From an uncultured Eubacteriales bacterium (GTDB lineage Bacteria; Acidobacteriota; Aminicenantia; Aminicenantales; Aminicenantaceae): a DNA stretch of 64,000 bases. Made by a program: the position numbers and the translations under genes. Below are positions 2,123 through 34,801 of this stretch, one piece after another. Under the pieces are notes generated by a model. That model was not told the origin of the DNA and searched no databases. It saw only the letters and a program-made list of their open reading frames with translations. The DNA lies in contig CAYVAT010000004.1 of assembly GCA_964449165.1 (NCBI GenBank), positions 91,317 through 155,316 of the forward strand. The letters run 5' to 3'. Positions within the stretch are counted from its first letter, which is position 1. Every line of letters begins with the position of its first letter.

Positions 2123-3283
2123 TTAGTGTTGTTTCAATTCCCCCTTGTCAATCTTTACCCAGTTCACTTGTGTAATCATCTGATGCAAAGCCGCTTTGGC
2201 CACGGCGACCTGGGTAGCATACTTCGGTGTTGTGCTTGCAGGAAAAGTTGCGAGTGTTGCGTCGCCGACAAGAAAGACATTGAAGTCTTTGCTCAGATTT
2301 TCGTAGCCGCACGTGGTGCTGATGACACACATATCTGTGGCGTATCCGGTCAGTAAAATGTGACGTACACCTTTGCTCTTCAAGTAATCGCGGACTTTTT
2401 GGTACCCTTCATCGTCATAAAACACTATATCGTTTTTTCTCAGCTCGAGAGATTTAACAATCGGAATCGGCAACTGCCCGTATCCTGGTCCGTTATAGTA
2501 GACACTGTCATCCGTGGAGGGAGTGAGACTAAAGTAGCTCTTAACGGGCGTATTTGCGTCAAGTAGAAGGGTTTTTTTCAATGGATTCCCTTCGAACTTG
2601 TGTCTGCTCAACAATTCAGCGAGCAAGTTCTTACCCTGTTCGATGTCCTGTTCTTCAGGCTTTGTTAATATTGAGGAATAGAGAAGCTTTCGAACTTGGT
2701 CTTCCGAGCCCGGCAAAGAATGTCCTACAAGAGAAACATAACCGCGCAACCGGGATAAAAAAGGGTTAATCACGTCCTGAACGTGCATGATCATTAACTT
2801 ATTTTTTTCTGGAGTGCCGAAGAATTTGCACCCCGCAGGTTCGGGCGTTTTCAGTCCATGTCCATCATCGATACCCCAAGGATGGACATTAATAATTGCT
2901 GTTGCTTTTGCCTCAAGTCGATTCTCCATCTCGACAATACCGCGGGCATTGTACCAGTAACGCCAGGACCTAACGAGCATATCGCTGGCCTTCTCGTCCA
3001 CGACCGGCGGTGCTAGAAAACGGTGATCCGATTGCAAAGGTTGGACATATTCTGGATAGTCAGCCAGCAATGGCATAGGATCTTTGATTTTTTCTAAAGT
3101 ATTATAATAATTATTTGTAGATTTTTCTCTTTTATTCAATTCGTACAACGCTTTCAGTTTTTGATTGGCAAACAGTACCAAGGAAATTGTGAGTAGTCCC
3201 CACAAAATTACGGTAATTATGCTTCTTTGTTTATGGGAATTTCTTTTTAGTACTTGCCGCGAATTCTTTACAATTTTAATCAA
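2123..3283 (-). CDS. Membrane-anchored isochorismatase-family (cysteine hydrolase) protein
   Basis: N-terminal TM (IITVILWGLLTISLVLF); C-terminal region HILLTGYATDMCVISTTCGYENLSKDFNVFLVGDATLA resembles the isochorismatase/CSHase catalytic Cys region. Confidence 0.55.
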   Translation of the reverse strand: MIKIVKNSRQVLKRNSHKQRSIITVILWGLLTISLVLFANQKLKALYELNKREKSTNNYYNTLEKIKDPMPLLADYPEYVQPLQSDHRFLAPPVVDEKASDMLVRSWRYWYNARGIVEMENRLEAKATAIINVHPWGIDDGHGLKTPEPAGCKFFGTPEKNKLMIMHVQDVINPFLSRLRGYVSLVGHSLPGSEDQVRKLLYSSILTKPEEQDIEQGKNLLAELLSRHKFEGNPLKKTLLLDANTPVKSYFSLTPSTDDSVYYNGPGYGQLPIPIVKSLELRKNDIVFYDDEGYQKVRDYLKSKGVRHILLTGYATDMCVISTTCGYENLSKDFNVFLVGDATLATFPASTTPKYATQVAVAKAALHQMITQVNWVKIDKGELKQH

Positions 3284-3391: not shown

Positions 3392-4096
3392 TCACTTAAG
3401 AAAATTCAGTATATATTCACAGTGCATAAAATCAAACTCGGTATCGACATCCATCGATTCTTTTTCAGAGATGATTACACCTTTCATGTTCTGGTTATCC
3501 AAGATATTTTCCTTATAAATGATATGAGTTTTCATAGCATCAACCACACCATTGATTCGATAAACAGGCGGCAGAAGTTGACGCTGATAATATTTGCTGA
3601 GTTTTATGTCTCCTGAAATAAGCTCGGCACTTCCGTCTTCGGATAATCTATACATCCAGTAAGGATGGTGAACTCCTTCCACCAGGGTCATCGTCCTTAC
3701 AACATCTGCACCAGTATCTCTTATCTTCTTGACTACCCTGTCAATGATTTGCGGAGTTTTAAACGGGGTGGTAGGTCTTAAGTTTACGACAATCTCAGGC
3801 TCGTAATCATCGTTGTTTTTTAACCATTCAAGGACATGTAAAAAGACTGGCTGGTCAGGAGTGTCACTTTTGGCTAATTCAGCAGGTCTCAGGAAAGGAA
3901 CCTCCGCGCCCCATTTTCGAGCGACCTCTGCTATTTCTTCATCATCTGTTGAAACAACCAGCCGTTCGATTGAAGTCGAGTGCAATGCGGCCTCGATGGT
4001 GTAAGCAATCAAAGGCTTGCCAGCAAGAAGCCTTATGTTTTTCCTCGGAACTCGCCTGGAGCCTCCGCGAGCAGGAATTATGCCCAGCACCTTCAT
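3392..4096 (-). CDS. CMP-nonulosonate (acylneuraminate-family) cytidylyltransferase, copy 1
   Basis: MKVLGIIPARGGSRRVPRKNIRLLAGKPLIAYTIE...VSTDDEEIAEVARKWGAEV matches the NeuA/CMP-NeuAc synthetase-family N-terminus; ATG at 4096 overlaps the upstream TGA (ATGA), so start taken at the internal Met rather than the ORF-track start. Confidence 0.85.
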   Translation of the reverse strand: MKVLGIIPARGGSRRVPRKNIRLLAGKPLIAYTIEAALHSTSIERLVVSTDDEEIAEVARKWGAEVPFLRPAELAKSDTPDQPVFLHVLEWLKNNDDYEPEIVVNLRPTTPFKTPQIIDRVVKKIRDTGADVVRTMTLVEGVHHPYWMYRLSEDGSAELISGDIKLSKYYQRQLLPPVYRINGVVDAMKTHIIYKENILDNQNMKGVIISEKESMDVDTEFDFMHCEYILNFLK

Positions 4097-5229
4097 TTTA
4101 TTTTTTTTACGATATTCTTCAAATTTTCTATTATGTAGTTTTGATCCTCCACCGTAAGACCAACCCACATAGGTAAATCAATGAGTTGCTTCCATGCCTT
4201 GTAGCTCGTAGGATAGGAGTCATTTTTATACCCAAATCTCTTCTGGTAGTAAGGCTGGATGTGAATAGGGGGAAAACTCAATCGAGTGTCGATTCCTCTC
4301 GATTTTAATTCAGATACAACTCTGTCACGATCCAGCCCTTCTTTCAATGAAACGGCATACATATACCAGGCATGGCGATTGACATATTCAGGCACAAAGG
4401 GTGGAGAAATATCAGTGGATTCCCTGAATGCGTCGCTATACCTTTCAGCAATCTTGTTCTTCTCATTCAGAATAAATTCAACTCTCTTGAGCTGCTCGAT
4501 CCCGATAGCTGCTGGAATATCCGTCATACGATAGTTGTATCCCAGGTGAATATGGTGATACCGATAATCCTGTCCCTGGTTGCGAACCTGCCGTGTTAAG
4601 ACAGCTTTTTCATCATCATCGGTTGTGACCATCCCTCCTTCACCTGTTGTGATGTTCTTGTTTGGAAAGAAGCTGAATATATGTAGAGGAGCGATCGATC
4701 CCACCTTTCTCCCTTTATAAACAGCCCCCAGTGATTCTGCACTGTCAGCAATAACAATCAAGCCCTTCTCTTCTGCAAAAGCGAGCAGGTGGTCATAGTC
4801 AACCGGCATCCCATTCATGTCCACTGCAATTATGGCCTTTGTCTTGCCTGTTATTCTCTTCTCGGCATCTTCAAGGGAGATATTATAAGTCTTTGGATCA
4901 CACTCCACCAGAACCGGAATGGCTCGTTCATACAGTACAACATTAGCAGTCGAGATAAATGTTATGGTAGGAATAAGCACTTCATCGCCTTCCTCAATGC
5001 CAGATGAAATCAAGGCAAGGTGCAAAGCCGTCGTTCCACTGTTGGCTGCAATCGCATGTCTAGCTCCCACATACCTCGCAAATTCATTTTCAAATTCCTC
5101 AACCCTCTTCCCCATACTCAACCATCCGGACTTAACCACCTCGTACACAGCCTTAGCCTCTTCCTCACCGAGGTAGGGATTTGCCAAGGGAATATTTTTC
5201 ATTTGTAAGTGCTCCTTCATTTTATTCAT
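4093..5229 (-). CDS. DegT/DnrJ/EryC1/StrS-family PLP-dependent sugar aminotransferase (PseC/LegC/WbpE-like)
   Basis: NPYLGEEEAKAVYEVVKSGWLSMGKRVEEFENEFARYVGARHAIAANSGTTALHLAL...SFFPNKNITTGEGGMV typical of DegT family; true start may be the internal Met at about 5202. Confidence 0.85.
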   Translation of the reverse strand: MNKMKEHLQMKNIPLANPYLGEEEAKAVYEVVKSGWLSMGKRVEEFENEFARYVGARHAIAANSGTTALHLALISSGIEEGDEVLIPTITFISTANVVLYERAIPVLVECDPKTYNISLEDAEKRITGKTKAIIAVDMNGMPVDYDHLLAFAEEKGLIVIADSAESLGAVYKGRKVGSIAPLHIFSFFPNKNITTGEGGMVTTDDDEKAVLTRQVRNQGQDYRYHHIHLGYNYRMTDIPAAIGIEQLKRVEFILNEKNKIAERYSDAFRESTDISPPFVPEYVNRHAWYMYAVSLKEGLDRDRVVSELKSRGIDTRLSFPPIHIQPYYQKRFGYKNDSYPTSYKAWKQLIDLPMWVGLTVEDQNYIIENLKNIVKKIK

Positions 5230-5250
5230 TACTGTAGATGCCTGAATGTT

Positions 5251-6273
5251 TCATCTTATGATTTCTTCGTCATTACCTTCATATCGTGGAATAGTATCAT
5301 CAGTATACCAGTCGGTCGTCTTCATTAATCCTTTCCTTAAGGATGTTTGAGGTTCATATCCCAGAGACCGTATCTTGGCAATGCTCGGGCACCTTCTTCT
5401 TGTTCCTCCCGGGAGACGCTTGCCAGGTATTATATTAATCTTGAATTCCAGCAATCCTGCAATCTCTTTAGCGAGATCAGCAATGGTGATTTCATCTTCA
5501 GTACCAATGTGGTAGATCTCACGGCTCTTGCCGAGAGTAGCACACAGAAGTATTCCTTCTACAGCGTCATCAATGTAACAGAATGACCTGGTCTCTTCTC
5601 CTGTTCCCTGAATCGGAAAGTCAATCTCTTTCCTTCGAAAATTATCACTCAGTGTTTTCATGCGCAGTATGAATTGGGGGATGACATGACCCACTCCCAT
5701 ATCAGGACCGTAAAAATTGTGTGGACGGCATATCACGGTTCTCAAGCCAGTCTTTGCAGTATAATGAATAGCTAACAGCTCGGTTATTATTTTTCCTCCA
5801 CTGTATGAAAATCTTGGATTTTTGACATCAGGAATAATGAGCCTTTCCTCTTCGGAAGTAGGGATATGTGAAGGCTCCTGATACACTTCTGATGACGAAG
5901 TGACTAAATAATTACTTACTCCGCATCTCATGGCTGCATCTAGTGTATTCAAGGCACCCTTGACACCCACCTCAAGCACCCTTTCAGGAATTCTGTAGAA
6001 ATTCTCTGTGCCGTTGATAAAGGCAAGGTGAAACAGGGTATCAATCCCCTTGCATGCTTGATAAACCTGATTGAAATCTGTGACATCTCCTTCTCTGTAG
6101 TCAACCTTCTCCAGATACCCTTCCAGTCTGCGGACCATTCCCCTTGAGTTGTTGTCGAGGATACGTACAGAGGCACCTCCATCCACCAATCTCTTGGTCA
6201 GATTGGAACCGACGAATCCTGTTCCCCCGGTTATCAATATTTTTCCCAAGTTCGCTGTCTTTATCCTCTGCAT
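5251..6273 (-). CDS. NAD-dependent epimerase/dehydratase (extended SDR), nucleotide-sugar modifying
   Basis: ILITGGTGFVGSNL Rossmann motif, YSGGK catalytic YxxxK, about 340 aa. Confidence 0.8.
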   Translation of the reverse strand: MQRIKTANLGKILITGGTGFVGSNLTKRLVDGGASVRILDNNSRGMVRRLEGYLEKVDYREGDVTDFNQVYQACKGIDTLFHLAFINGTENFYRIPERVLEVGVKGALNTLDAAMRCGVSNYLVTSSSEVYQEPSHIPTSEEERLIIPDVKNPRFSYSGGKIITELLAIHYTAKTGLRTVICRPHNFYGPDMGVGHVIPQFILRMKTLSDNFRRKEIDFPIQGTGEETRSFCYIDDAVEGILLCATLGKSREIYHIGTEDEITIADLAKEIAGLLEFKINIIPGKRLPGGTRRRCPSIAKIRSLGYEPQTSLRKGLMKTTDWYTDDTIPRYEGNDEEIIR

Positions 6274-7943
6274 CCTATCCCTATGTATCTAATGTTATTA
6301 ACTGTTATGATATCTTTAGGTTCAAAGGTATACCAGCCATCCACGAAAATACAGTCATTCCTGGCAGAATTCAGCAAATCAAACACATCCATCTTCTTGT
6401 AGCTTTTATGATTATTCATGATCAGCACCACATCTGCATCCTTGAAGCCTTCAGCGATAGAAACCGGCTTCACACCCAATGCTGTTATCTCTTCCTGTGA
6501 CACGATCGGATCATAGCCAAAAAAGGAGCTGTCTCTCATCCCCTTTTTACGGAAGTGGTTTAATAGATCTATGGTAGTTGAGCCTCTTAGGTCAGATGTT
6601 TCTGGCTCTCCCTTAAAAGCAAATCCAATAATAAAGATTTTTAATTTATCGATCTTTTTCTTCAACTCCATGATCTGTTGATATACGTCTTCCACAATAT
6701 GGTAGGGAATAAATTCGTTTATCTGTCTCGAGTGTGAGACCATCCTGGGTTGGTGCTTTAGTTCCTTACATGAGTGGATCAGGAAGTATGGGTCCTTGGT
6801 AAGGCATGCTCCTCCAACACCAGGGCTGGGTACCGGTATCTCATCCCTTACGTATCCCAGATTTGCGGCCTGTACCAATTTAACCATATCCAGTCCCAAT
6901 TCTTTACACACCAGTGCCATCTCGTTTGCGTACCCGAACTTGACATCGCGGAAGGTGTTATTGAGAATTTTAACCATCTCTGCACCTTCCAAAGATCCTA
7001 CATCCACAATTATCGGTGTAATCTCTCTGAATAACCTGTTAACAAGCATCGTGCTTTTCTTGTCATATCCACCTATTATCTGAGGCAGTTCTTTGATTTC
7101 AGATATCGCTCTGCCTTCAATTGTTCTTTCAGGTGCATAGGCCAAATAGTAATCAATGCCTGCCTTGAGGCCTGACAGCTCGTTCAGGATTGGTAACATG
7201 ACCTCTCTTGTTGTTCTCACCGGTACCGTAGAACGTAAGACAACTAGATCGTCCGGCTTTAAGAATTTGGCTATATACCTGGCGGCTTCCTCGATATTAT
7301 CGATAATTGGTTTCTTCGTCTCAGGGTTAACCGGAGTCCCTACTGATACGATATACGTATCCACTTTCAATCCAGAGAGATCAGAAATAGGGATGAGATT
7401 TTTCCCGACGTATCTATGAAGGTAAGCCTCCAGATTGTCTTCATAAAAGGGAACGAATCCATTCTTGATTTTTTCAATCAGCTTGCCGTCTGTATCATAC
7501 CCAAATACCTTAAATCCAAATTCGGCGAGGACAACCGATAATGTCAAGCCGACATAGCCCAGTCCGATCATACAGATCTGTCGGGACTTGGCATCCAGTA
7601 AAACACTCTTATCCTTGAAGGTTATGACTCCTTTAACACGTCCGTTATCGTCTAATACGGGTATCTGGGCATACTTTTCATTGACCAGCTCCAGCATTGT
7701 CTCCCGACTCATGCCTTCTTTGACCACGATAGGAGAGCGATTCATGATGTTTTTTACGGGTTCATCTGCATCATGCCCGCTTAAGAATCCTCTCCGGATA
7801 TCTCCGTCCGTAACGATACCCACCAGGCGGTCCTCGTCATCCACAATCATGGCAAATTTTGAGGCCGATTCATTGATAGCCTTCATGACCTCAAAAATAC
7901 TCTTACCCTCGGGAACCATTATTGATTGGATATCATATAACAT
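6261..7943 (-). CDS. CBS-pair domain fused to UDP-glucose/GDP-mannose dehydrogenase-family enzyme (UDP-N-acetylhexosamine 6-dehydrogenase-like, WbpA/WecC-type)
   Basis: N-terminal about 110 aa CBS pair (IVTDGDIRRGF...GVITFKD), then CMIGLGYVGLTLSVVLAEFGFKVFGYDTD NAD-binding start and conserved GGAC(L)TKD catalytic region. Confidence 0.8.
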   Translation of the reverse strand: MLYDIQSIMVPEGKSIFEVMKAINESASKFAMIVDDEDRLVGIVTDGDIRRGFLSGHDADEPVKNIMNRSPIVVKEGMSRETMLELVNEKYAQIPVLDDNGRVKGVITFKDKSVLLDAKSRQICMIGLGYVGLTLSVVLAEFGFKVFGYDTDGKLIEKIKNGFVPFYEDNLEAYLHRYVGKNLIPISDLSGLKVDTYIVSVGTPVNPETKKPIIDNIEEAARYIAKFLKPDDLVVLRSTVPVRTTREVMLPILNELSGLKAGIDYYLAYAPERTIEGRAISEIKELPQIIGGYDKKSTMLVNRLFREITPIIVDVGSLEGAEMVKILNNTFRDVKFGYANEMALVCKELGLDMVKLVQAANLGYVRDEIPVPSPGVGGACLTKDPYFLIHSCKELKHQPRMVSHSRQINEFIPYHIVEDVYQQIMELKKKIDKLKIFIIGFAFKGEPETSDLRGSTTIDLLNHFRKKGMRDSSFFGYDPIVSQEEITALGVKPVSIAEGFKDADVVLIMNNHKSYKKMDVFDLLNSARNDCIFVDGWYTFEPKDIITVNNIRYIGIGCRG

Positions 7944-8000
7944 CTCAGACTTTCCTTTCTAAAAAACTTATTACAAATAATATTGATTTAAAAATTTCTG

Positions 8001-8837
8001 TCAGAGGAGGTTCATCACCTGCTGTGAATTCATATAATCAGCGAGGGAGATGAGCGAATCATCATCTGGAAGGAACAGGAAATTCTCATTTGAGCGGTTG
8101 AATTGCCTTGGATTTTTGAGTATCGCTCCGGATTTTATTTGAGTGATCATGTAACCCAGTTCTTTCAGCAATTGTGCAGCATGGCTCTTTGAAGGATTGT
8201 CATCCTCCCATTTCTCACGGAGTATTTCGAGCACTATTACAGGTCGGTTCTTGACAATGGTGCTTTTTGCTCCTTCAAGGACAGCGTTCTCATGACCTTC
8301 TGCATCACATTTAATCAGCGAAACTCGTCTGTCAGATAGGGTTGAATAAGCGAGGTTGTCCAGCTGATTGGCAGGGATTTGGATTTTCTGCATATGCTCA
8401 TCATTTTTTATTTGATCTGCAGTATCAACTATGGCTGCAGTAGAGGAGATGGATGTATATGGAGGGACGAACATTTTCTTGGAACAGGCCTTGTTTGAAA
8501 GAGCGATATTCAGGCAAAGAATATTGCTATGGCGTTTTGTTCTTTTTTTTAGGAACTGATAATTCCCTGGGACAGGCTCGAAAGCGACTACAATACCATT
8601 TGGTCCCACTAGATGAGAAAGTCTTATCGTCCAGGCACCAATGTATGCACCAACATCAACAGCAGCAGAATCCTTTTCAACCAGACCTGACACAGAATTA
8701 AGCAAAGTGATCTCATTTGCTGTTAATTCTTCAGTGAGAAGTATATTTATTCTCTTGTAGTTATGCTGTATGAATGATGCGGCCGATTGACCGAGAAGCC
8801 TGTATATTGTTTTACGGAGTGCTCTTGGAATTCTCAA
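8001..8837 (-). CDS. FkbM-family SAM-dependent methyltransferase
   Basis: VDVGAYIGAWTIRLSHLVGPNGIVVAFEPVPGNYQFL...LIKCDAEGHENAVLEGA is the FkbM-domain pattern. Confidence 0.7.
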   Translation of the reverse strand: MRIPRALRKTIYRLLGQSAASFIQHNYKRINILLTEELTANEITLLNSVSGLVEKDSAAVDVGAYIGAWTIRLSHLVGPNGIVVAFEPVPGNYQFLKKRTKRHSNILCLNIALSNKACSKKMFVPPYTSISSTAAIVDTADQIKNDEHMQKIQIPANQLDNLAYSTLSDRRVSLIKCDAEGHENAVLEGAKSTIVKNRPVIVLEILREKWEDDNPSKSHAAQLLKELGYMITQIKSGAILKNPRQFNRSNENFLFLPDDDSLISLADYMNSQQVMNLL

Positions 8838-9715
8838 TCTTCCCTTCTTAAAATATTTTTAACCATCTGATATTGGCTCATGATCTCTGCTGTTTTAATT
8901 CCCCTGCATTCGATGGTTATCGGTATCTTTCCCGGATCAAATCTCCTTACAGCTCTCAGTTGCCAGCAATCCGGGGCTAAAAGAACATGTTCATCTTTCT
9001 TGCCATCATTTCCAGATAAATGGATTTCAAAAATCTTGTCCTGGAAACCTTTGCTAAGGGTTTCTATGAATTCGTCTTTATTGAAACCAAAATAATTTGC
9101 GGAGATAACGAGATGCCCTAAATCTAACAGAAAGCCTATATTGTCGTCCTGTCTGCAATAATCGAGAAACTGAATAATCTCAGCCGGAGTGCAGAGTAAT
9201 GAACTATCAGGAGCATCACTAATCGGAAAGAGGTTCTCCAGACCAATCCTGACTCCCCGCATGACAGCATATTTCCTGATCTCCAAAAGCGATTCATACA
9301 TAATGGCTGATGCATATGCAGGGCTTATACCTGAATAACCATCAGCTACAAAGTAATCACTTTCTTGTGAGGCTCGTAATTCTCTCGTATAGCCTGGATG
9401 CAGCGTATAGCAATCTATTTCTAAATCATGGGCTAGATCGATGCTTCTTTTGACAAAATTGATGCTTTTTAATCTTGTTTCTTTATTACTGCTTGCAATA
9501 TTTAAAACAAAGTCTTTCTTGGATGGAGGGAAATAATTATGAATGAGAAGATTAAGAGAAAATTCTTTCTTTAAGCCTTTCAGTTTTTTCAAGATGTTGT
9601 CAGAATAGCTCAGTCCTCCGCTGAGCTCAATATTACAAATACAAATACTAGCAAGTGTGTTGATAGATTCCTCTAGAGAAGAGCTGTTAACAGCTGCAGA
9701 AGAAACATAGATCAT
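8834..9715 (-). CDS. Xylose-isomerase-like TIM-barrel sugar (phosphate) isomerase/epimerase family protein
   Basis: Motifs YTLHPGY, GLENLFP and LDLGHL spaced as in AP-endonuclease-2/xylose-isomerase TIM barrels. Confidence 0.6.
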   Translation of the reverse strand: MIYVSSAAVNSSSLEESINTLASICICNIELSGGLSYSDNILKKLKGLKKEFSLNLLIHNYFPPSKKDFVLNIASSNKETRLKSINFVKRSIDLAHDLEIDCYTLHPGYTRELRASQESDYFVADGYSGISPAYASAIMYESLLEIRKYAVMRGVRIGLENLFPISDAPDSSLLCTPAEIIQFLDYCRQDDNIGFLLDLGHLVISANYFGFNKDEFIETLSKGFQDKIFEIHLSGNDGKKDEHVLLAPDCWQLRAVRRFDPGKIPITIECRGIKTAEIMSQYQMVKNILRRED

Positions 9716-18784: not shown

Positions 18785-19833
18785 TAGAATTCCTTTAAAT
18801 CATTTTGTGCCTTTCTCAGATCCTCCATCTGACCTATATCCACCCAGTATTCATGTATGGGAAAGGTTGTGACTGGCAGCCCTTTTCTCACCAGCTCTTT
18901 GATTAAATCAGTCATGTCAAATGCTGTATTTGCAGGAATGAGGGATAATGCTTCAGGATTAAGCATGTAAATGCCGGCGTTACAAAGGAACCTCTGGTCG
19001 GGTTTTTCTTCAATCCCTAAAAGATAATGGCTGGATATATTGAGAACGCCAAAAGGAATATTCAACGTGTATTGTGTTGCTGCTACGGTCATAACACATC
19101 TGTGCAGCTTGTGGAACTCGATCAACCTTAGGAAATTGGTCTTTGTTATCACATCACCATTGATCACGAGAAGGGGGCTTGATGGAATCTCTGGTAAAAG
19201 CGTCAAGGCACCGGCTGTACCTAATTCTTTTTTCTCCTTCAGATAGGAAATGTTTACGCCATATTGGGAGCCGTCCTTAAAATAATCTTCAATCATCTCA
19301 GTTTTGTAGTTTAAGGAGATGTAGATATTAACAATTCCGCTTTCTTTTAAGTAATTGATGATATTCTCTAAGATGGGCTTATTACCCACTTTTATCATGG
19401 GTTTTGGAATATTTTCTGTAACAGGTCTTAAACGTTTACCTTTGCCGCCGGCCATAATGACTGCAAATTGATAAGCGTCCAGTTCAGAAACGATGTCTCT
19501 GAGATGTATAATCTTTAATGGACAGCCGTTCCTGTCAAGGATGGGAATGTTCCTGATCAAGTGTTTATTCATCAACTCTTTCAGTTCTTTTTCTGAAGTC
19601 CCATGAGGAGCGGTCAAGGGTTTGGTCCACATAACATCGGTCACAGGCTCATCAATGGAGCATCCTGCGAGAAGGAAGCGTCTGATATCACCGTCTGTAA
19701 CTGTGCCCTTTAAACATCCCTTTGTATCCACAATAAGGGCAATCCCCTGTTTATTTTTATCTATCACTCCCATACACTCGCGAACGGTGGCTGATTCCTT
19801 TAAACAAAATTGATTTATATTTTTGTCCTTCAT
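18784..19833 (-). CDS. CBS-pair + sugar-phosphate nucleotidyltransferase fusion (PtmE-like hexosamine-1-phosphate nucleotidyl/guanylyltransferase)
   Basis: N-terminal CBS pair (TVTDGDIRRFLL...) followed by AVIMAGGKGKRLRPVTENIPKPMIKVGNKPIL NTP-transferase signature; start set at ATG 19833 (ATGA overlap with upstream stop) rather than the ORF-track start at 19947, whose N-terminal extension overlaps the upstream gene. Confidence 0.8.
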   Translation of the reverse strand: MKDKNINQFCLKESATVRECMGVIDKNKQGIALIVDTKGCLKGTVTDGDIRRFLLAGCSIDEPVTDVMWTKPLTAPHGTSEKELKELMNKHLIRNIPILDRNGCPLKIIHLRDIVSELDAYQFAVIMAGGKGKRLRPVTENIPKPMIKVGNKPILENIINYLKESGIVNIYISLNYKTEMIEDYFKDGSQYGVNISYLKEKKELGTAGALTLLPEIPSSPLLVINGDVITKTNFLRLIEFHKLHRCVMTVAATQYTLNIPFGVLNISSHYLLGIEEKPDQRFLCNAGIYMLNPEALSLIPANTAFDMTDLIKELVRKGLPVTTFPIHEYWVDIGQMEDLRKAQNDLKEF

Positions 19834-21038
19834 CAGTATGTCATCCTTTTCTGGAGTAAACGCATATTTATATCGATTGTTGCCAGGACATGCGCTATCT
19901 GTTCTCCTGCATTCCCGGCACCATAAGGATTTTTCGAGTTTCTGCATCGTCTTCTGAATCCTTCATCATCCAAAGCCTTTCTTACCGCATTGATGATTTC
20001 GTCCCTGTTATAACCCACATCAATGACGTTATCTGCTCGCAAACGGCCATTCTGTCTTGACCCGACATTAACCACAGGACACCCCAGGGCCGGTGTCTCT
20101 TTTATGCCACTGGAGGAATTTCCTACGCAGACTCCTCTTCCTGCTCTTCCACAGATATTCAGGACTCCATGATAATTGTAGCGCCCCAGGCTCTTATAAA
20201 TCCGAAGATTCTTGAGTCTCTCTTTCCTTAATTTTTCGATCTCCTTTATAATTCGCCTCCCTCCGGCATCATTATTCGGGTAAGTGACGATAACCTGGCA
20301 GCCTTCCTTTGCCAGGATACGCATGGCTTCTAAAGAGGGCCTGACCTGTTGAGCTGCTTTTTCAAATTCGGTGGTCACAGAGTGCTGGGTAAACAGGATG
20401 ACCGGTTTATCAGGTATGAGACCGTAGGTTTCCTCGATTTCAGCAGGTGTGGCAAAATGACCAGCAACGATGAGGTCAATTGCGGGGAATCCCACATTGT
20501 AGATCCTCCAGCGCTCCTCTCCCAGGAGTCGTACACGCTCTGCTGCCTGTTCATTGGTGGTAAAATGGAGGTGTGACAACTTAGTCATTGCATGACGTAC
20601 AGAATCATCCAGGGCTCCTCCCTCTGTAATATCTCCTCCTTCTACATGGGCGGTGGGAATGTTCATCTGGGTTGCAGTTATGACCGCAGAGAATCCCTCA
20701 AAACGATCAGCATAGACAACAAGGAAATCAGGTCTTATTTTGTCCAGGATGCGGCTCAAACTCAAGATCCCAGAACCAATTGCTTGAGCTGTGGAGAACA
20801 GGGTATCTTCCTCCATTTCAATCTTTACTTCAGCATATACCTTAAAACCGTCTTTCTCGATTTCCTTCAGTGTATAGCCGAAGTCTTCCTGAAGATGTGC
20901 TCCTGAAACCAATAAAAAGTATTCCAGCTCAGGATGGGCGTCTATTGCCTTCAAGATAGGATATTGAAGCCCGTATTCAGCACGGTTTCCTGTAAAAACG
21001 GCAATTTTTCTTTTATTGGAGGGTATTTTTCTAGTCAT
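19833..21038 (-). CDS. UDP/GDP-N-acetylglucosamine 2-epimerase (hydrolysing), NeuC/LegG family
   Basis: KIAVFTGNRAEYGLQYPILKAI...HVEGGDITEGGALDDSVRHAMTKLSHLHF typical of NeuC-type 2-epimerases. Confidence 0.85.
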   Translation of the reverse strand: MTRKIPSNKRKIAVFTGNRAEYGLQYPILKAIDAHPELEYFLLVSGAHLQEDFGYTLKEIEKDGFKVYAEVKIEMEEDTLFSTAQAIGSGILSLSRILDKIRPDFLVVYADRFEGFSAVITATQMNIPTAHVEGGDITEGGALDDSVRHAMTKLSHLHFTTNEQAAERVRLLGEERWRIYNVGFPAIDLIVAGHFATPAEIEETYGLIPDKPVILFTQHSVTTEFEKAAQQVRPSLEAMRILAKEGCQVIVTYPNNDAGGRRIIKEIEKLRKERLKNLRIYKSLGRYNYHGVLNICGRAGRGVCVGNSSSGIKETPALGCPVVNVGSRQNGRLRADNVIDVGYNRDEIINAVRKALDDEGFRRRCRNSKNPYGAGNAGEQIAHVLATIDINMRLLQKRMTY

Positions 21039-22002
21039 ATCCCTTGAGTGTTAATGACAGTCCTTCAGATAATGTATATCTAGGCTTCCATCCAGTAAAT
21101 TTTTTTAGAAGGCTGTTGTCAAGGATCAGCGTTGAATTTGAAGGCTCATAATTACCTTGTGGTTGAACTTCGTTGATGGGAACAGAGCCTATGCGGCTTG
21201 CCATCTTAACCAGATTAAAAACAGTTGTTCCGATCCCAGTTGATAAATTGACAGTATAACATCCATGCTTATCTGTGGAAACAAATAGATGTATCAGGCC
21301 TTCAATAACATCATCGACGTATATGAAATCTCTTATCGGGGTTAAATCACGAACAACAATTCTTTCGCCATTTTTAATTCTTTTTATAACAGTGCTAACA
21401 ACCGTATCTTCATTGCTTCCTAGCCCATAGACATTGCCTAATCTAGCGATAAAACAGGTTATTTTAAAACTCTTTGAATGACCTGTTATTATTGCTTCTG
21501 CGGATAATTTCAAGCCGGCGTAGATATTTTGAGGAGTTGGGGAAGTTTCCTCGGTCACCGGCTGCCTATGATAATCTCCGTAAACAAGCCCGGTGGATGG
21601 GAAAATGAATTTCCCTATTTTGTTTTGTCTGCAAAATTCTAATGCCTGAAAAGTCAGTAATACATGTGATTTGAAGGCCTTTAGCGGATTTTCTTCACAC
21701 TCTCCTGCGTGAGCAATGCCTGCCATATGAAATACAGCGGTTATACCTCTTTTTTCTGACAGCAGTTCAGATAGTGCTTCATCTGATTTCTCAGGAAAAC
21801 CCCCATGGATAAAACGAAAGGAATTATGCAGGATAATTTCGGCAGAATGTTTCGGAAATTGTTTGTTGGAATCAATCCCAACAACAAATGCTCCATTATC
21901 CAGGAGAGCCTTCACTAAACGGCTGCCCAAGAATCCGCTGGCCCCTGTGACCAGGATTCCGTATCTTTCTAAACTACCAGTTTTCGATATCATCGGGGCC
22001 AA
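21031..22002 (-). CDS. NAD-dependent epimerase/dehydratase-family SDR
   Basis: ILVTGASGFLGSRLVKAL Rossmann motif, YAGLK YxxxK. Confidence 0.75.
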   Translation of the reverse strand: MAPMISKTGSLERYGILVTGASGFLGSRLVKALLDNGAFVVGIDSNKQFPKHSAEIILHNSFRFIHGGFPEKSDEALSELLSEKRGITAVFHMAGIAHAGECEENPLKAFKSHVLLTFQALEFCRQNKIGKFIFPSTGLVYGDYHRQPVTEETSPTPQNIYAGLKLSAEAIITGHSKSFKITCFIARLGNVYGLGSNEDTVVSTVIKRIKNGERIVVRDLTPIRDFIYVDDVIEGLIHLFVSTDKHGCYTVNLSTGIGTTVFNLVKMASRIGSVPINEVQPQGNYEPSNSTLILDNSLLKKFTGWKPRYTLSEGLSLTLKGYD

Positions 22003-23011
22003 TCTGAGAGTCCTTTTGAATATCTCTTGCGGCTTTCTTGCCCAGTACCCTGTTAAGTTCGGGTGCTAAAATGGCTCCAGTCCCGGGTCTTTTTACCCAT
22101 GTGTTTTCAAGAGAGAACACTTTTCCAGCCCTTACAGGAGCAATGGCCACAACAGAGGCATAGGCAAAATCGATGACTGGTTGTTCCTCCGGCAGGATAG
22201 TTTTATGGCCACCCAGGGCTGAAAATATTGCTTTTGAACCTTTTACTAGCTCTGTCAGCTCATCTGGCTCTATAGAAATTGGAACGTCGGGACCGGGCCA
22301 CTCACGAGTTATCGTGAAGTGTTTTTCAAGGGCAGCAGCCCCTAATGCCACAGCACCCAGGCATGTGTATATGCCGATGGAATGATCACTTAGCCCGACA
22401 GGTAAACCAAACATATCCTGCAGCTCCTTTATAGCGCCGAGACGAACCTTTTCATATGGGGTCGGATACATAGAAGTGCAATGCATCAGCATGAGAGGTG
22501 TTTCATATTTTTGAATAGCCTTAACTGATTTTTTAATGGATTCCACATCATTCATTCCAGTTGATAATATTATTGGCTTTCCGAACTTGGTGATATGTTC
22601 CAATAGGGGAATATTGTTGCATTCACCTGAGCCGATCTTGAAAGCTGAGACATTTATAGACTGGAGACGGTCTGCTGCCTCTCTGGAAAAGGGAGTACAG
22701 AGGTATATGATTCCTTTGTCTTCACAGTATTTCTTTATCCGTATTTCCTCCTCCCCAGTCAGCTCGCATCTCTTTATTATGTCCCAAAGACGCTCTTCGG
22801 ATATCTCACCTGGTTTCATGTCTGTGGGAATCATTTCAGCCTCTGTGATATGACTTTGAAATTTTACACAGTCAGCCCCTGCCTTGACTGCCGCATCCAC
22901 ACACTGGATTGCTTTATCAAAGCTCCCTTCATGATTGATGCCTACCTCGGCTATTATAAAAGGTGGATATTGAGGGCCGATTTTACGGTGATTTATCTGG
23001 AATTCCATCAT
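21974..23011 (-). CDS. NeuB-family nonulosonic acid synthase, copy 2
   Basis: FIIAEVGINHEGSFDKAIQCVDAAVKAGADCVKFQSH plus C-terminal SAF domain; clearly paralogous to, but distinct from, copy 1. Confidence 0.85.
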   Translation of the reverse strand: MMEFQINHRKIGPQYPPFIIAEVGINHEGSFDKAIQCVDAAVKAGADCVKFQSHITEAEMIPTDMKPGEISEERLWDIIKRCELTGEEEIRIKKYCEDKGIIYLCTPFSREAADRLQSINVSAFKIGSGECNNIPLLEHITKFGKPIILSTGMNDVESIKKSVKAIQKYETPLMLMHCTSMYPTPYEKVRLGAIKELQDMFGLPVGLSDHSIGIYTCLGAVALGAAALEKHFTITREWPGPDVPISIEPDELTELVKGSKAIFSALGGHKTILPEEQPVIDFAYASVVAIAPVRAGKVFSLENTWVKRPGTGAILAPELNRVLGKKAARDIQKDSQIGPDDIENW

Positions 23012-23101
23012 TTATTAACCTCTTTCTTACAGGATAATTGTCGAAGTGAACCATATTAAAAGGAATGATAATAAATTCTTATCTCAAAAGATTCTTTTTT
23101 A

Positions 23102-23956
23102 TCACCAGGCTGTCCAGCCGCCATCGATGACCAGAGTCGCCCCTGTCATGTAGCGGGATGCATCGCTGGCAAGGAAGAGGATGGCACCGTTATAATCTGA
23201 CCAGGTGGCCATTCTTCCTAAGGGAGTGCGTTTCACATATTCTTTATGGAATGAGCTCTCCTGGCCGTCATAGACACCACCCGGGACGAGAACATTGACC
23301 CTGACATTGAATTCTCCCCATGATGCTGCCAGATGCCTTGCTAATCCTATCAATCCTGCCTTGGATGCAGAATAGGAGGCAGGACAATTCAACGGGTCAG
23401 CACCTCCATAAATATTTTTTTCTGGTGAGCAACCTTTGTAGATCCTCTGGTCTGGCCCCACGATGCCGTATATAGAAGAAGTTAAGACGATTGAACCTGC
23501 GCGGGATTTTTTCATGTAGTTTACAGCCTCCCGGCAGCACAAAAAAGCTCCGGTCATATTTCCATTCAAAATACTCTTCCATGTGCTTACAGGATACTGG
23601 TCTAAAGGCCTATAATATCCATCTGGTTTTGTCATGACGTTGTAGATAAGGATATCCACTCTTCCCCAAGAATGATGAATCTTTTTGAATAACTCTTGAA
23701 CCTCCATTTCTTTGCTCGCATCGCATTTCAACCCCATCACAGAAGTGCCTGTCAGAGTCGTAACCTCTTTTGCCACAGCTTTACATTTTCTGGCATCGAT
23801 ATCACCTAGTGCGACATTTGCCTGTGCATATCCTAATGTAATGGCAAACTGTCTCCCCATCTTTCCTGCTCCGCCAATGATGACTGCTGTCTTTCCTTTC
23901 AGGTTGAAGAGGGACTCAACCTTATTGAGTTCGGGTATTTTAGAGTAGTCAGACAT
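23102..23956 (-). CDS. Classical short-chain dehydrogenase/reductase (PtmA-like)
   Basis: KTAVIIGGAGKMGRQFA TGxxxGxG-like motif, YSASK catalytic YxxxK. Confidence 0.8.
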   Translation of the reverse strand: MSDYSKIPELNKVESLFNLKGKTAVIIGGAGKMGRQFAITLGYAQANVALGDIDARKCKAVAKEVTTLTGTSVMGLKCDASKEMEVQELFKKIHHSWGRVDILIYNVMTKPDGYYRPLDQYPVSTWKSILNGNMTGAFLCCREAVNYMKKSRAGSIVLTSSIYGIVGPDQRIYKGCSPEKNIYGGADPLNCPASYSASKAGLIGLARHLAASWGEFNVRVNVLVPGGVYDGQESSFHKEYVKRTPLGRMATWSDYNGAILFLASDASRYMTGATLVIDGGWTAW

Positions 23957-24668
23957 TTGTTACCTCTCTGGATTGTTTCATTAAGAATTCGACAATCTTA
24001 AAATCCAATTCCGTATCAATATGAATGGACCGCTCTTCTGGAACCAGAAAGAGACGAGTACGAGGGGGGATTCGCTTGCCGATATCCATGATTGCCTCTC
24101 TTGAGTATATCCATACGGTGGTGTCAAGATCATACACAGGAGGGCACTCCTGACGGCATCCTATATCCCTGTCTGTGGGCATCAATATCTGGACAAAACC
24201 GTCTTCTAAACAAACCATATTAAAATAAGGGCTGCGGTGCGCTTCACATCCAGAGACTACGGCTTGGCAGGCACCATCATGGTGAAACAGTGACAAGGCT
24301 TCTTCTACGTCCTTGACCTTACGCAGGGGGCTGGTTGGATCTAACAATACTAGTATCTTCACTCTTTCTCTGTATATTTCCTCAACGGACTGAACGGCAT
24401 GCTGCATCACCGGCAGCATCGGTGTGTCATCCTTTGCCAATTCAGGAGGCCTGATAAAAGGGACCTCAGCTCCCCATTTTCTCGAAATTTCTGCGATCTC
24501 CGAATCGTCTGTTGAAACGATTGGCTTATCTATAAAAGAGCAGGCCCGTGCACACTCGACAGTATAAGATATCAAAGGTTTTCCCAAAAGGTGTCTGATG
24601 TTTTTCTTTTTTATACCCTTTGATCCACCCCTTGCAGGAATAAGTCCGAGCACCAGACCTGAATTCAT
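23949..24668 (-). CDS. CMP-nonulosonate cytidylyltransferase, copy 2 (LegF/PtmB/NeuA-like)
   Basis: LGLIPARGGSKGIKKKNIRHLLGKPLISYTVE...VSTDDSEIAEISRKWGAEV. Confidence 0.85.
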   Translation of the reverse strand: MNSGLVLGLIPARGGSKGIKKKNIRHLLGKPLISYTVECARACSFIDKPIVSTDDSEIAEISRKWGAEVPFIRPPELAKDDTPMLPVMQHAVQSVEEIYRERVKILVLLDPTSPLRKVKDVEEALSLFHHDGACQAVVSGCEAHRSPYFNMVCLEDGFVQILMPTDRDIGCRQECPPVYDLDTTVWIYSREAIMDIGKRIPPRTRLFLVPEERSIHIDTELDFKIVEFLMKQSREVTNV

Positions 24669-24676: not shown

Positions 24677-25708
24677 CTATTGACTTTTTATCTCAGAAGG
24701 CCTGACAGCCCTCCTGGTTTCTGAAGCTTTATGGGCAGCTAATGCTACCTTAAGAACAGCGATTCCGTCTTCAAGATCAACCGCTGGATTGTCTCCATTC
24801 TTTATCCTGTTCAGGAAGTGCTTCATGTGATCGACAAACATGGTATTCCTCTCGAATGAAGCCGGTTGATCGAAAATTCGGGCCTCTGATGTTCCTTTAA
24901 TGCTGAGCGTAACTTTACCGGAGCTGTAATCCCACGAGAGAGTACCTTTACTCCCCACAACTTCACAATCGCGTCTATAGTAGGGACTTAGGTAGTCCAT
25001 CTCGACTTGAGCCACCAGTCCATTGCCAAATCTCAGCAGAATCTGGGCAACATCTTCTGTTTCAATCTCCAGGTCAGATACATGATCGAGGAATGCGGCG
25101 ACATCGGAAACAGGGCCAAACCACCAGTAGAGATAATCCAATTCATGAATCAGGTCAAAAAGCACCCCACCTCCCTGATCTGATTTTGCACTGTAAGAAT
25201 GGCGGTAATCCTGTTCGGGGCGCCAATCAGGCAGATAGTGTCCAACGCTGGCTCTTGCTAAATAAGGCTTGCCGATTTCGCTCCTTTCCAGAAGCTCTTT
25301 TATTGATTGCAGGCCGGGATGAAATCTCATCATGCATCCAACTTCGATAACGAGTGATTTCTCCTCTCTCAGCCTCTTAAAATCCTCAATCCCTTCTAAG
25401 CTGTTCGATAATGGCTTCTCGAAGTATATATGAATTCCTCTCTTTGCAGCCGCAATGGCTGTCTCCATATGCTGATCAGTACGATTACTGATTATGACTG
25501 CATCTGGCCCGGAATCAAAGGCACTCTCTAAGGACGGAAAGACTCTAATCCCATGTTTTTTAGATAGCCCCTTACTTCTTTCTCCCCTATAACTGTAAGC
25601 AGACACAGACGTTCCTAAAGCAAGCAAATTCTTTATATGTCTGGTCCCGATTGAGCCGGTTCCCACAACAAGAACCTTTAAGTCTTTAAACAACACGGTT
25701 GGCTTCAA
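24677..25708 (-). CDS. Gfo/Idh/MocA-family NAD(P)-dependent oxidoreductase
   Basis: KVLVVGTGSIGTRHIKNL N-terminal Rossmann fold and ...IYFEKPLSNSLEG... consensus of GFO_IDH_MocA. Confidence 0.8.
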   Translation of the reverse strand: MKPTVLFKDLKVLVVGTGSIGTRHIKNLLALGTSVSAYSYRGERSKGLSKKHGIRVFPSLESAFDSGPDAVIISNRTDQHMETAIAAAKRGIHIYFEKPLSNSLEGIEDFKRLREEKSLVIEVGCMMRFHPGLQSIKELLERSEIGKPYLARASVGHYLPDWRPEQDYRHSYSAKSDQGGGVLFDLIHELDYLYWWFGPVSDVAAFLDHVSDLEIETEDVAQILLRFGNGLVAQVEMDYLSPYYRRDCEVVGSKGTLSWDYSSGKVTLSIKGTSEARIFDQPASFERNTMFVDHMKHFLNRIKNGDNPAVDLEDGIAVLKVALAAHKASETRRAVRPSEIKSQ

Positions 25709-25868: not shown

Positions 25869-26975
25869 TTATTTTGAGGAATCTTTGCTCTTTCTTATGA
25901 AATCGACGATTAAGGCCAGAAAAAAGCCTAGGAAAAGAGAAACAAACCCGCTTATCATGACCATCCTTGTCCTTCTTGGCCGAATGGGTCTAGAACTGGC
26001 AAAAGGCTCTTGGACAACGTGAATCAACTTAACATCTGTGGATTCTTCTTTACTCTTCACTTCTTTAAGTTTTTCTAAGAGACGCTTTAAACTCGGCCTT
26101 TCTGTCAATAAGGAATCGTACCTTGAGATGAACTCTGAGAAATCTTGGCCGATATCGGGCTTTTTTATTAATTTTTCCATTATTAAAAGCTGGTTGCTAA
26201 GGTTCCTTTCAGAGTTTTCGAGCAGCTTCTGCTGAACTCCTTGTCCCTCCCTGTTAGTCTGGAGGGTTGTGTTTAATGTATCTTTATAGGCTATGTTCTG
26301 CTGAATAGTGTTTGAATAGAGTAACAGAGCAACAGGATCCCCTTTACCTCCTTCGCTCAGCATACGGTCTCTTTGTTTGATAATAGATTCTGTATTTTCA
26401 TCAATCATCTTAATCTGCTTCCTTATTTTTGTTTCTGCGTCTTTCAACAGTTTTATCTGGTTTATGTAAAATACAATTTCATTTAATATCTCTTTAAACT
26501 TGTCTATTTTCGATGTGATTTTCCACGAAAAAGATTTTTCTATCTGGTTAAGCAGTTCTCTCATTATTATCTCACCCTGTTCAGGGTCTGTTGTGTCATA
26601 AGACACATTGATAATATAGGCCTCTCCGGGTTTTTTAGCAGTAAATTGCAAGCCAAAGGGAGGGATATTTAATGCATTAAAAATCTTCGGGTTATAGATT
26701 CCACCATTGATAAAGGAAACCATCTCATCGATTTTAGCTACTGGGACAAGTTCAACTTTCATGGTTTCAGGATCTAACTCCTCGATAGCCCCAGGACTTA
26801 ATGAAGCTGTTACCCTGTATACAGGTGTTATCATGTAGCTTCTTACTAAGGCAGCAATAACTGACAAGATGACGATTCCGATAATAATAAATTTCCATCT
26901 CCAGATGACCTTAATATAGTCATAGAGATTGATATTATCCTCGTAATTATCGGTCTTATATTCCGGGTTTTTCAT
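25869..26975 (-). CDS. Wzz/PCP-family polysaccharide chain-length determinant
   Basis: N-terminal TM (WKFIIIGIVILSVIAALV), long coiled-coil periplasmic region, C-terminal TM (VMISGFVSLFLGFFLALIV): classic PCP topology. Confidence 0.7.
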   Translation of the reverse strand: MKNPEYKTDNYEDNINLYDYIKVIWRWKFIIIGIVILSVIAALVRSYMITPVYRVTASLSPGAIEELDPETMKVELVPVAKIDEMVSFINGGIYNPKIFNALNIPPFGLQFTAKKPGEAYIINVSYDTTDPEQGEIIMRELLNQIEKSFSWKITSKIDKFKEILNEIVFYINQIKLLKDAETKIRKQIKMIDENTESIIKQRDRMLSEGGKGDPVALLLYSNTIQQNIAYKDTLNTTLQTNREGQGVQQKLLENSERNLSNQLLIMEKLIKKPDIGQDFSEFISRYDSLLTERPSLKRLLEKLKEVKSKEESTDVKLIHVVQEPFASSRPIRPRRTRMVMISGFVSLFLGFFLALIVDFIRKSKDSSK

Positions 26976-31052: not shown

Positions 31053-31171
31053 TAAGAACAACTGGAGATACCAAAGTTAATCAGTAAAGAAATAGCGAAG
31101 GGATAAGAAAGAGATAGCTGGGAGGCGGATTTTCCTAAGGTTTTTAGGTTTCGAGAGAGAGGAGTTTTGAG

Positions 31172-34799: not shown

Positions 34800-34801
34800 G
34801 T

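Follow-up and report, generated by a model that had tools for sequence, protein, structure and literature searches.

We analyzed a surface-polysaccharide gene cluster, probably for sialic-acid-like sugars, on a 64,000-nucleotide stretch of DNA (hereafter the window, numbered from its first letter) from an uncultured bacterium of the Aminicenantales (GenBank assembly GCA_964449165.1, contig CAYVAT010000004.1, positions 91,317 to 155,316). From 2123 to 27433, every gene is on the minus strand; among them are two genes for NeuB-type synthases and two for cytidylyltransferases. Our analysis indicates that the locus very probably makes two different ulosonic acids activated with cytidine monophosphate (CMP). 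On balance, we lean toward the view that it is a tandem of two self-contained modules for such sugars, module B (25708-17786) and module A (11393-3392), with two candidate transferases in between. The DegT aminotransferase, the NeuD acetyltransferase, and the hydrolyzing epimerase NeuC occur once each and are probably not shared between the modules.

The initial annotation of the window had listed two synthase genes, here called NeuB_A (10338-11393) and NeuB_B (21974-23011), and two cytidylyltransferase genes, CTP_A (3392-4096) and CTP_B (23949-24668). This proved correct in every detail, all four being intact open reading frames (ORFs) on the minus strand. It had also counted a single aminotransferase, acetyltransferase, and NeuC, and a BLASTP comparison of all ORFs of at least 60 amino acids (aa) in the 64-kb window with the proteins of the locus found no second DegT, NeuD, or NeuC. 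Its description of the pair members as clearly different proteins, not recent duplicates, was borne out as well, the identity being 36% between NeuB_A and NeuB_B and 38% between CTP_A and CTP_B. The nearest genome, Ca. Aminicenans sakinawicola (locus L009), matches the locus in gene order, its proteins being 67-87% identical; a JGI contig (L050) holds the whole array from the regulator at the locus head to NeuD at 72-88% identity; and three metagenome contigs carry identical or near-identical copies of the locus. Because both synthase/cytidylyltransferase pairs are syntenic in L009 and L050, at 77-88% amino acid identity, neither pair is a pseudogene or a recent duplicate. The catalytic residues of both synthases are also intact (see below), which speaks against a decaying pair.

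Complementary distribution of DegT and NeuC in related loci

To define which genes travel together, we sampled about 120 loci, comprising 40 genomic loci marked by the TIM-barrel gene of module A and 80 metagenomic loci marked by members of the NeuB_B family, and labelled their ORFs by BLASTP against the window proteins. The main counts were made on the 52 loci of at least 12 kb (28 TIM-barrel and 24 NeuB_B loci), and a stricter set comprised the 16 NeuB_B loci whose flanks reached 6 kb or more on each side. Among the 28 TIM-barrel loci, 27 had DegT, 26 a NeuB gene, and 23 a cytidylyltransferase. NeuC was found in 2 of them (L009 and L014), and both are dual loci. Conversely, NeuC was present in 21 of the 24 NeuB_B loci and DegT was missing from 21 of the 24. 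The stricter set gave the same picture, with NeuC in all 16 loci, LegB in 15, PtmE and the extended short-chain dehydrogenase/reductase (SDR) of module B, eSDR_B, in 13 each, DegT in 3, and NeuD in 1. In a Pfam census of the unlabelled neighbor ORFs, which counted families found in at least two ORFs, we saw no aminotransferase family beside DegT-less module B and no Epimerase_2 or PseG family beside the TIM-barrel gene.

The two modules were also found apart. A Pelagicoccus metagenome-assembled genome (MAG; L011) has module A alone, with NeuC, PseG, LegB, and PtmE all absent within 10 kb, and in L007, module A is coupled to a different partner module. Module B occurs alone, before the candidate transferase GT531 and a Neu-type triad (L004, L076, and L082), or before other synthase modules (L057, L058, L086, L088, L116, and L128). 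The dual B + A architecture was seen again in L008, L009, L014, and L050. Taken together, the complementary co-occurrence of DegT and NeuC and the separate occurrence of the modules are most simply read as assigning DegT and NeuD to module A and NeuC to module B.

The two synthases and the two cytidylyltransferases

Both synthases have the PF03102 and SAF (PF08666) domains, and both keep the residues E25, K53, Q55, K129, S132, S154, Y186, S213, H215, H236, D247, and R314 of the Neisseria meningitidis enzyme (nmNeuB). They otherwise resemble different enzymes. NeuB_B scored 375 bits on TIGR03569, under the cut-off of 399.65, and matched N. meningitidis NeuB with 358 bits and 50% identity, against 192 bits for SpsE and 162 bits for a PseI. 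An identity of 49-51% was also found to the synthases that Bacillus cereus pBC210 (bpsE/F/G) and an Alistipes plasmid encode within plain NeuB-NeuC-NeuA triads. Its family is strongly conserved, members from Saprospiraceae, Elusimicrobia, and Omnitrophica MAGs being 70-80% identical to NeuB_B. NeuB_A passed the same model with 432 bits, and its closest solved relatives were Bacillus subtilis SpsE (229 bits, 40% identity) and PseI (223 bits), ahead of the meningococcal enzyme (185 bits). In a neighbor-joining tree, whose reference set contained no characterized LegI, the NeuB_B family was sister to the N-acetylneuraminic acid (Neu5Ac)-type synthases (nmNeuB, BpsE, and the Alistipes synthase), and NeuB_A clustered with every TIM-barrel-linked synthase in a separate clade, similar to legionaminic acid (Leg) synthases and to those of pseudaminic acid (Pse).

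While the core catalytic residues are retained, sugar-facing substitutions differ by synthase family. Of the nmNeuB residues Asn74 and Asn184, the NeuB_B family replaces the first by Ile or Leu and the second by Ser; members of the NeuB_A clade carry Gln (or His, Asp, or Asn) in place of Glu134, Thr in place of Asn184, and Gly in place of Phe288. Asn74 belongs to a loop reported to surround C4-C6 of the sugar (PMC7371886), and the hydrophobic residue of the NeuB_B family at this position would fit a 6-deoxy substrate. Position 184 has been tied to the pathway type (PMC7371886), and the Thr of NeuB_A and the Ser of NeuB_B agree with none of the classes in that study. The same study gives Phe at position 132 as the mark of Pse synthases; counted on the alignment, this is G133 of nmNeuB, and both our synthases have Gly there. 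They scored 318 and 243 bits on the PseI model TIGR03586, below the cut-off of 340. Thus, on the Gly residue and the PseI scores, a Pse synthase was excluded for either gene. Other genes of a Pse pathway were not seen either: only three SDRs matched the PseB model, with 25-63 bits (cut-off 408), and the locus holds no PseG-type gene.

On the PseF model (cut-off 205.7), CTP_B scored 138 bits and CTP_A 149 bits. The closest solved structure to CTP_B was the CMP-Neu5Ac synthetase 6ifd (118 bits). We also considered the 3-deoxy-D-manno-octulosonic acid (Kdo) pathway and rejected it, the KdsB models giving 27-72 bits against cut-offs of 155-281 (at most 72 bits on CTP_A) and the synthases belonging to the NeuB family, not to KdsA. 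As a side observation, some loci of the sample carry divergent NeuB-like paralogues with Gln at the Lys53 and Ser213 positions (L046 at 7173, L047 at 7184, and L086 at 2099), which in L046 and L047 lie directly upstream of a NeuB_A-type synthase, and L006 has a short NeuB-like gene of 279 aa.

Module A and its TIM-barrel protein

Downstream of NeuB_A, module A comprises a NeuD/PglD-type N-acetyltransferase (9712-10344; TIGR03570, 218 bits, cut-off 160.8), a xylose-isomerase-like TIM-barrel metalloenzyme (8834-9715), an FkbM-family methyltransferase with a presumed tailoring role (8001-8837; TIGR01444, 87 bits, cut-off 37.7), a nucleoside diphosphate (NDP)-sugar 6-dehydrogenase with a CBS pair (CBSDH, 6261-7943; TIGR03026, 346 bits, cut-off 189.8), an extended SDR that structure matches place near UDP-glucuronate decarboxylases (eSDR_A, 5251-6273), DegT (4093-5229), and CTP_A (PF02348, 102 bits). 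The core set of NeuB, (NeuD), TIM barrel, DegT, and cytidylyltransferase is widespread across phyla, including Bacteroidota, Desulfobacterota, Omnitrophota, Planctomycetota, Pelagibacteraceae, and others, and it is present in the cultured Crocinitomix catalasitica (L024), where a PglF-like dehydratase gene is close to the module and DegT carries a fused CBS pair (10851-12260). The sub-group of the window has CBSDH and eSDR_A in place of the dehydratase.

The closest solved relatives of CBSDH are UDP-ManNAc dehydrogenases and CalS8, and the catalytic-Cys motif GGACLTKD is present. eSDR_A adjoins CBSDH in every locus with sequence past CBSDH. Its top structure match was PDB entry 8VR2, and among solved structures, human UDP-xylose synthase UXS1 (117 bits) came before the dTDP-glucose dehydratases (RmlB, 95 bits), whereas on the NCBIfam models LegB (141 bits) and RmlB (119 bits) both came before the UXS-type model (72 bits). 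It has Arg-Ser at the Arg-Asp position of dehydratases and epimerases, which we take to be a UXS-/ArnA-like feature and use as a lead rather than as a test. The closest solved relatives of DegT were GDP-perosamine synthase (276 bits), ArnB (216 bits), WbpE (195 bits), and PseC and PglE (153 bits); since perosamine synthase and ArnB come before WbpE, we assigned it as a C4 aminotransferase. It did not pass the LegC model TIGR04181 (283 bits, cut-off 420).

The TIM-barrel gene lies between NeuB/NeuD and DegT in about 40 genomes of many phyla. We detected 105 homologues, all uncharacterized, and weak matches of the family to MbnB/DUF692 oxidases. The predicted structure (mean confidence score pLDDT 95) had MJ1311, ketose 3-epimerases, endonuclease IV, and 3-keto-glycoside lyases/hydratases as fold neighbors, and eight invariant residues of metal-ligand type are retained in the family. 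Both the fold and the conserved His/Asp/Glu metal ligands place the protein in the xylose-isomerase-like/endonuclease IV superfamily. Among the reactions known in this superfamily are phosphodiester hydrolysis and a glycosidic elimination with subsequent hydration. It is therefore plausible that the TIM barrel may free the sugar from its nucleotide. Our literature search found no paper connecting a xylose-isomerase-like protein with nonulosonic acids.

We infer each chemical step of both modules, like both products, from these gene families. In module A, the 6-dehydrogenase and the UXS-like SDR would yield a 4-keto NDP-sugar, which DegT would aminate at C4, NeuD then acetylating the new amine. 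The TIM barrel would take over the step performed elsewhere by NeuC or PseG, NeuB_A would join the sugar with phosphoenolpyruvate (PEP), and the product would be activated by CTP_A and methylated by FkbM. The combination of a dehydrogenase, a decarboxylase, and a C4 aminotransferase follows the logic of the aminopentoses 4-amino-4-deoxyarabinose (Ara4N) and that of calicheamicin; hence, an 8-carbon product is possible. It is in this form, and for module A only, that the suggestion of the initial annotation that one pair makes something other than a nonulosonic acid survives.

Two side observations concern module A. In L007 (10646-13273), ketoacyl synthase (KAS) III, acyl carrier protein, ketoreductase, and hexapeptide acyltransferase genes replace NeuD and FkbM, hinting at the same sugar with an N-(3-hydroxyacyl) group. 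In the window, the CBS pairs of CBSDH and of the nucleotidyltransferase of module B (18784-19833) are 36% identical over 125 aa, and a common regulatory ligand for the CBS-bearing pathways is possible.

Module B

Module B starts with a Gfo/Idh/MocA oxidoreductase (GFO, 24677-25708), whose top NCBIfam models were inositol 2-dehydrogenase (138 bits) and UDP-GlcNAc 3-dehydrogenase (116 bits), both below cut-off. It is followed by CTP_B (PF02348), by a classical short-chain dehydrogenase (sSDR, 23102-23956), FabG/gluconate-5-dehydrogenase-like with all scores below cut-offs, and by NeuB_B. The short SDR is conserved beside CTP_B and NeuB_B, and GFO accompanies CTP_B and the short SDR in 8 of the 16 loci of the stricter set. 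eSDR_B (21031-22002) is epimerase-/ketoreductase-like, matching UDP-glucose 4-epimerase structures with 104 bits; it has the motif STGLVYG, its acid/base Glu is missing, and it lies between NeuB_B and NeuC in 13 of the 16 loci. NeuC (19833-21038), a hydrolyzing NDP-GlcNAc 2-epimerase of the NeuC/LegG type, scored 395 bits on the NeuC model TIGR03568 (cut-off 235.9) against 91 bits for WecB. The module ends with a PtmE-like protein, made of a CBS pair and a sugar-1-phosphate nucleotidyltransferase domain (NTP_transferase; 18784-19833), and with a LegB-family NAD-dependent 4,6-dehydratase (17786-18784; TIGR04180, 489 bits, cut-off 475).

In characterized systems, PtmE provides the GDP-sugar and LegB converts it to GDP-4-keto-6-deoxy-GlcNAc (PMC5378307). 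By analogy, the nucleotidyltransferase of module B would make NDP-GlcNAc, probably in the GDP form, and LegB would dehydrate it at C4,6. The 4-keto sugar would then be processed by eSDR_B without amination, freed and 2-epimerized by NeuC, condensed with PEP by NeuB_B, and activated by CTP_B, and GFO and the short SDR may tailor it. Since most module B loci have no aminotransferase and eSDR_B is epimerase-/ketoreductase-like, the sugar is likely a 6-deoxy-N-acetylhexosamine (HexNAc). The predicted product is a 5-acetamido, 7-hydroxy, 9-deoxy nonulosonic acid.

Combining the two modules leads to a proposal that we put forward tentatively and regard as possible rather than probable, namely, that module A makes an 8-carbon product with the TIM barrel as a new sugar-freeing enzyme and module B a 9-deoxy sialic acid, neither of which is known. 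In module A, an NDP-HexNAc would be oxidized at C6, decarboxylated, aminated, and acetylated to a 2,4-diacetamido-pentose, which NeuB_A would condense with PEP to 5,7-diacetamido-3,5,7-trideoxy-octulosonic acid, an 8-carbon analogue of Leg/Pse (C12H20N2O8, 320.3 Da before methylation). Methylation (+14) would make this compound isobaric with Leg5Ac7Ac, and a Leg/Pse isomer from module A would have a mass of 334.3 Da. The TIM barrel would free the sugar from its nucleotide and so replace NeuC/PseG in a widespread pathway family. Module B would provide a natural 9-deoxy sialic acid (C11H19NO8, 293.3 Da). Literature searches returned nothing relevant on the octulosonic diacetamido sugar, and nothing relevant or synthetic compounds only on natural 9-deoxy-Neu5Ac.

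Separate modules or shared enzymes

Several observations weigh against two self-contained modules. Three loci, L005, L060, and L094, have DegT within module B, with a NeuD-like gene in L005 as well, and their NeuB_B-type synthases are 75-77% identical to that of the window. A synthase of this type may therefore serve a diamino, Leg-type pathway, and DegT and NeuD of the window could be shared. These DegT genes are themselves non-canonical, with 183-215 bits on the LegC model (cut-off 420). The flanks covered were about 10 kb per locus, so that DegT or NeuC may lie elsewhere in those genomes. The nearest relative of the window DegT is a GDP-sugar aminotransferase, yet the only GDP-type nucleotidyltransferase is in module B. 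Likewise, the fold neighbors of the TIM barrel are mostly epimerases and isomerases. Finally, NeuB and LegI were inseparable in large phylogenies (PMC8208679) and no characterized LegI was among our references; thus, the names given to the products remain predictions.

Some of these points would be explained by a branched pathway, wherein GDP-4-keto-6-deoxy-GlcNAc from PtmE and LegB is converted by the one DegT and the one NeuD into a diacetamido sugar, the single NeuC frees this sugar, and the two synthase/cytidylyltransferase pairs turn it into two related diamino sugars, or into one Leg-type sugar and another one. We consider this doubtful, though by no means negligible. Its chief support is the three loci with DegT beside a NeuB_B-type synthase, to which are added the kinship of DegT with a GDP-sugar C4 aminotransferase, the score of LegB above the LegB cut-off, and the presence of one DegT, one NeuD, and one NeuC in 64 kb. 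The genes also lie on a single strand with short gaps, and our scan for promoters and terminators, whose counts were at chance level, showed no convincing terminator between the modules. Against it, DegT and NeuD are missing from 21 of the 24 NeuB_B loci and NeuC from 26 of the 28 TIM-barrel loci, module A is found alone without NeuC, PtmE, and LegB, DegT falls well short of the LegC model (283 bits versus 420), and the dehydrogenase, the UXS-like SDR, and the TIM barrel would be left without a role. In a cross-wired variant, NeuC, NeuB_B, and CTP_B would make plain Neu5Ac, and PtmE and LegB would feed the aminotransferase and acetyltransferase of module A toward a legionaminic-type acid via NeuB_A. 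Both the 50% identity of NeuB_B to meningococcal NeuB (49-51% to the plain-triad synthases) and the resemblance of DegT to a GDP-sugar aminotransferase speak for such a variant, but of the 16 NeuB_B loci, 15 have LegB and 13 have PtmE, mostly without DegT, module A is found without LegB or PtmE, and the NeuB_B family has Ile/Leu and Ser where the Neu5Ac enzyme has Asn74 and Asn184. This made it improbable in our eyes. We therefore keep the tandem of two modules as the reading that we favor. Regarding the initial annotation, which had proposed two different nonulosonic acids made from a shared intermediate, two different sugars indeed seem likely, as the synthase clades differ and correspond to roughly one Leg-type and one Neu-type sugar. 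The sharing of single-copy upstream enzymes did not hold, DegT and NeuD going with NeuB_A and the TIM barrel, and NeuC with NeuB_B. Its other suggestion, a fusion of two ancestral loci, fits, since each half occurs elsewhere alone or with other partners.

The initial annotation had also considered a WbpA/B/D/E-like route, with 2,3-diacetamido-mannuronic acid or the corresponding amide as the product, next to a nonulosonic route. All the enzyme classes for it are present (a 6-dehydrogenase, a Gfo/Idh/MocA oxidoreductase, DegT, a hexapeptide acetyltransferase, and an AsnB-like protein), but their arrangement and affinities make it very unlikely. GFO lies 17 kb from the dehydrogenase, in a conserved GFO-CTP_B-SDR block of loci without CBSDH or DegT, and the place of WbpB in module A is taken by the UXS-like SDR. 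DegT favors C4 aminotransferases (276 and 216 bits) over WbpE (195 bits), and the 2-epimerase is of the hydrolyzing NeuC type (395 bits versus 91 for WecB), whereas the WbpA/B/D/E/I pathway takes a non-hydrolyzing one. A synthase and a cytidylyltransferase always bracket module A, and the closest relatives have no AsnB. As for simple redundancy, or a decaying duplicate pair, the doubling of enzyme classes is all that speaks for it, and we rejected it as extremely unlikely: the pairs are merely 36% and 38% identical, all catalytic residues are retained, both pairs are syntenic at 77-88% identity in relatives, and the synthase phylogeny that the initial annotation had called for places NeuB_A and NeuB_B in different clades and not in one orthologous clade.

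Comparison with known systems

Several nonulosonic acid pathways in one region are known from Campylobacter jejuni and Leptospira (PMC7371886 and PMC3438082). The flagellin glycosylation island of C. jejuni (Pse and Leg) and the neuA2/neuB/neuC cluster of Leptospira interrogans likewise have more than one synthase and more than one CMP-transferase, with different products. In C. jejuni, however, each pathway has its full enzyme set, including PseC/LegC and PseG/LegG, whereas in the window one module is without aminotransferase, the other is without NeuC/PseG, and the two are adjacent with two transferase candidates between them.

Module B resembles the GDP-dependent Leg pathway of C. jejuni and Tannerella forsythia (PtmE, LegB, LegC, LegH, LegG, LegI, and LegF; PMC5378307) in its CBS-nucleotidyltransferase, LegB, hydrolyzing 2-epimerase, synthase, and cytidylyltransferase. 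It differs in the lack of LegC and LegH in most loci, in the extra epimerase-like SDR, and in a synthase nearer to the Neu5Ac type. The oxidoreductase classes of module B are presumably like PtmA/PtmF of C. jejuni. Likewise, the Neu5Ac NeuC-NeuB-NeuA systems of N. meningitidis and B. cereus pBC210 (bpsE/F/G) have synthases that share 49-50% identity with NeuB_B, which, like them, stands with a NeuC and a cytidylyltransferase. The NeuB_B family, however, forms a sister clade, is changed at positions 74 and 184, and goes together with a 4,6-dehydratase and a GDP-type nucleotidyltransferase.

For module A, the nearest parallels are aminopentose routes, which we take to run via Ugd-ArnA-ArnB (UDP-Ara4N) and via CalS8-CalS9-CalS13. 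In both cases, genes for an NDP-sugar 6-dehydrogenase, a UXS-like SDR, and a C4 aminotransferase are neighbors. Unlike in these routes, the triad lies in module A between a NeuB-type synthase and a CMP-transferase, and decarboxylation is putative. The B. subtilis sps pathway to legionaminic acid has SpsE, the closest solved relative of NeuB_A, and reportedly possesses its own nucleotide-sugar hydrolase, with no TIM barrel and no 6-dehydrogenase.

In the searchable literature, three features appear to be undescribed: the aminotransferase-free module of LegB, PtmE, and a Neu-like synthase; the NeuC/PseG-free TIM-barrel module with its dehydrogenase and UXS-like variant; and the recurrent B + A pairing with GT531 between. 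Sialic-acid-like sugars influence the recognition of bacterial surfaces by phages, hosts, and neighboring cells, and they are difficult targets for chemical synthesis. Among the ulosonic acids that mass-spectrometric surveys report from environmental bacteria, many with 7, 8, or 9 carbons are still unassigned (PMC8157484), and the same holds for CMP-activated ones reported elsewhere (bioRxiv 10.64898/2026.04.20.719630). Both modules are widespread and could account for part of this chemistry. If our proposals are true, they would provide new enzymes for rare-sugar production and improve automated annotation, by which both synthases are now labelled just sialic acid or legionaminic acid synthase.

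Transferases, accessory genes, and flanking genes

The two genes between the modules encode candidate transferases. GT531 (12976-14571) is a candidate ulosonic acid transferase (PF05159 Capsule_synth, 43.7 bits, cut-off 20), and its family is one that we take to hold the CMP-Kdo-dependent KpsC and KpsS. It comes directly after module B in many loci, including four without a second module (L061, L077, L124, and L126). GT488 (11497-12963), a candidate nonulosonic acid transferase, distantly matched the BFO_1060 family (59.8 bits, E 2e-16; cut-off 200), to which the T. forsythia transferases of Pse/Leg derivatives belong (PMC5420450). In L004, L058, and L076, a homologue of GT488 comes after the second module. 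With one transferase candidate for each module, this arrangement fits the model of two products.

Between LegB and GT531 lie an AsnB-like glutamine amidotransferase gene (15908-17746; TIGR01536, 505 bits, cut-off 267) and a gene for a 415-aa protein of unassigned family (14648-15895), with a weak prenyltransferase or alpha/alpha-toroid match only. The closest model to the AsnB-like protein was the XrtA/PEP-CTERM amidotransferase (665 bits, cut-off 817). Because L009 and L050, the nearest syntenic loci, lack the gene, we regard it as accessory, and it has the look of a gene recently inserted between LegB and the 415-aa gene. In L004, L076, L109, L123, and L126, too, AsnB-like genes stand beside NeuB_B. 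The 415-aa protein is conserved solely in the closest relatives (L001, L009, and L050).

At the head of the locus, we found a MarR-family regulator associated with exopolysaccharide (EPS) (27059-27433; TIGR04176, 132 bits, cut-off 88), which stands at the same place in L007, L050, and L052, followed by a Wzz-like chain-length determinant (25869-26975; PF02706, 31 bits, cut-off 25.5). The locus showed no gene for Wzx, Wzy, or an ABC exporter. Downstream of the locus, positions 2123-3283 encode a 386-aa protein with a C-terminal isochorismatase domain, and positions 1-2040, also on the minus strand, a sulfatase fused to a LamG-like domain that extends past the window start; given this gene, sulfation of the glycan is conceivable. 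On the other side, a divergent block on the plus strand (28800-35770) carries a gene for an LptD-like outer-membrane protein and rml-type genes, namely, for a nucleotidyltransferase, a 3,5-epimerase, and three dehydratase-/reductase-like SDRs.

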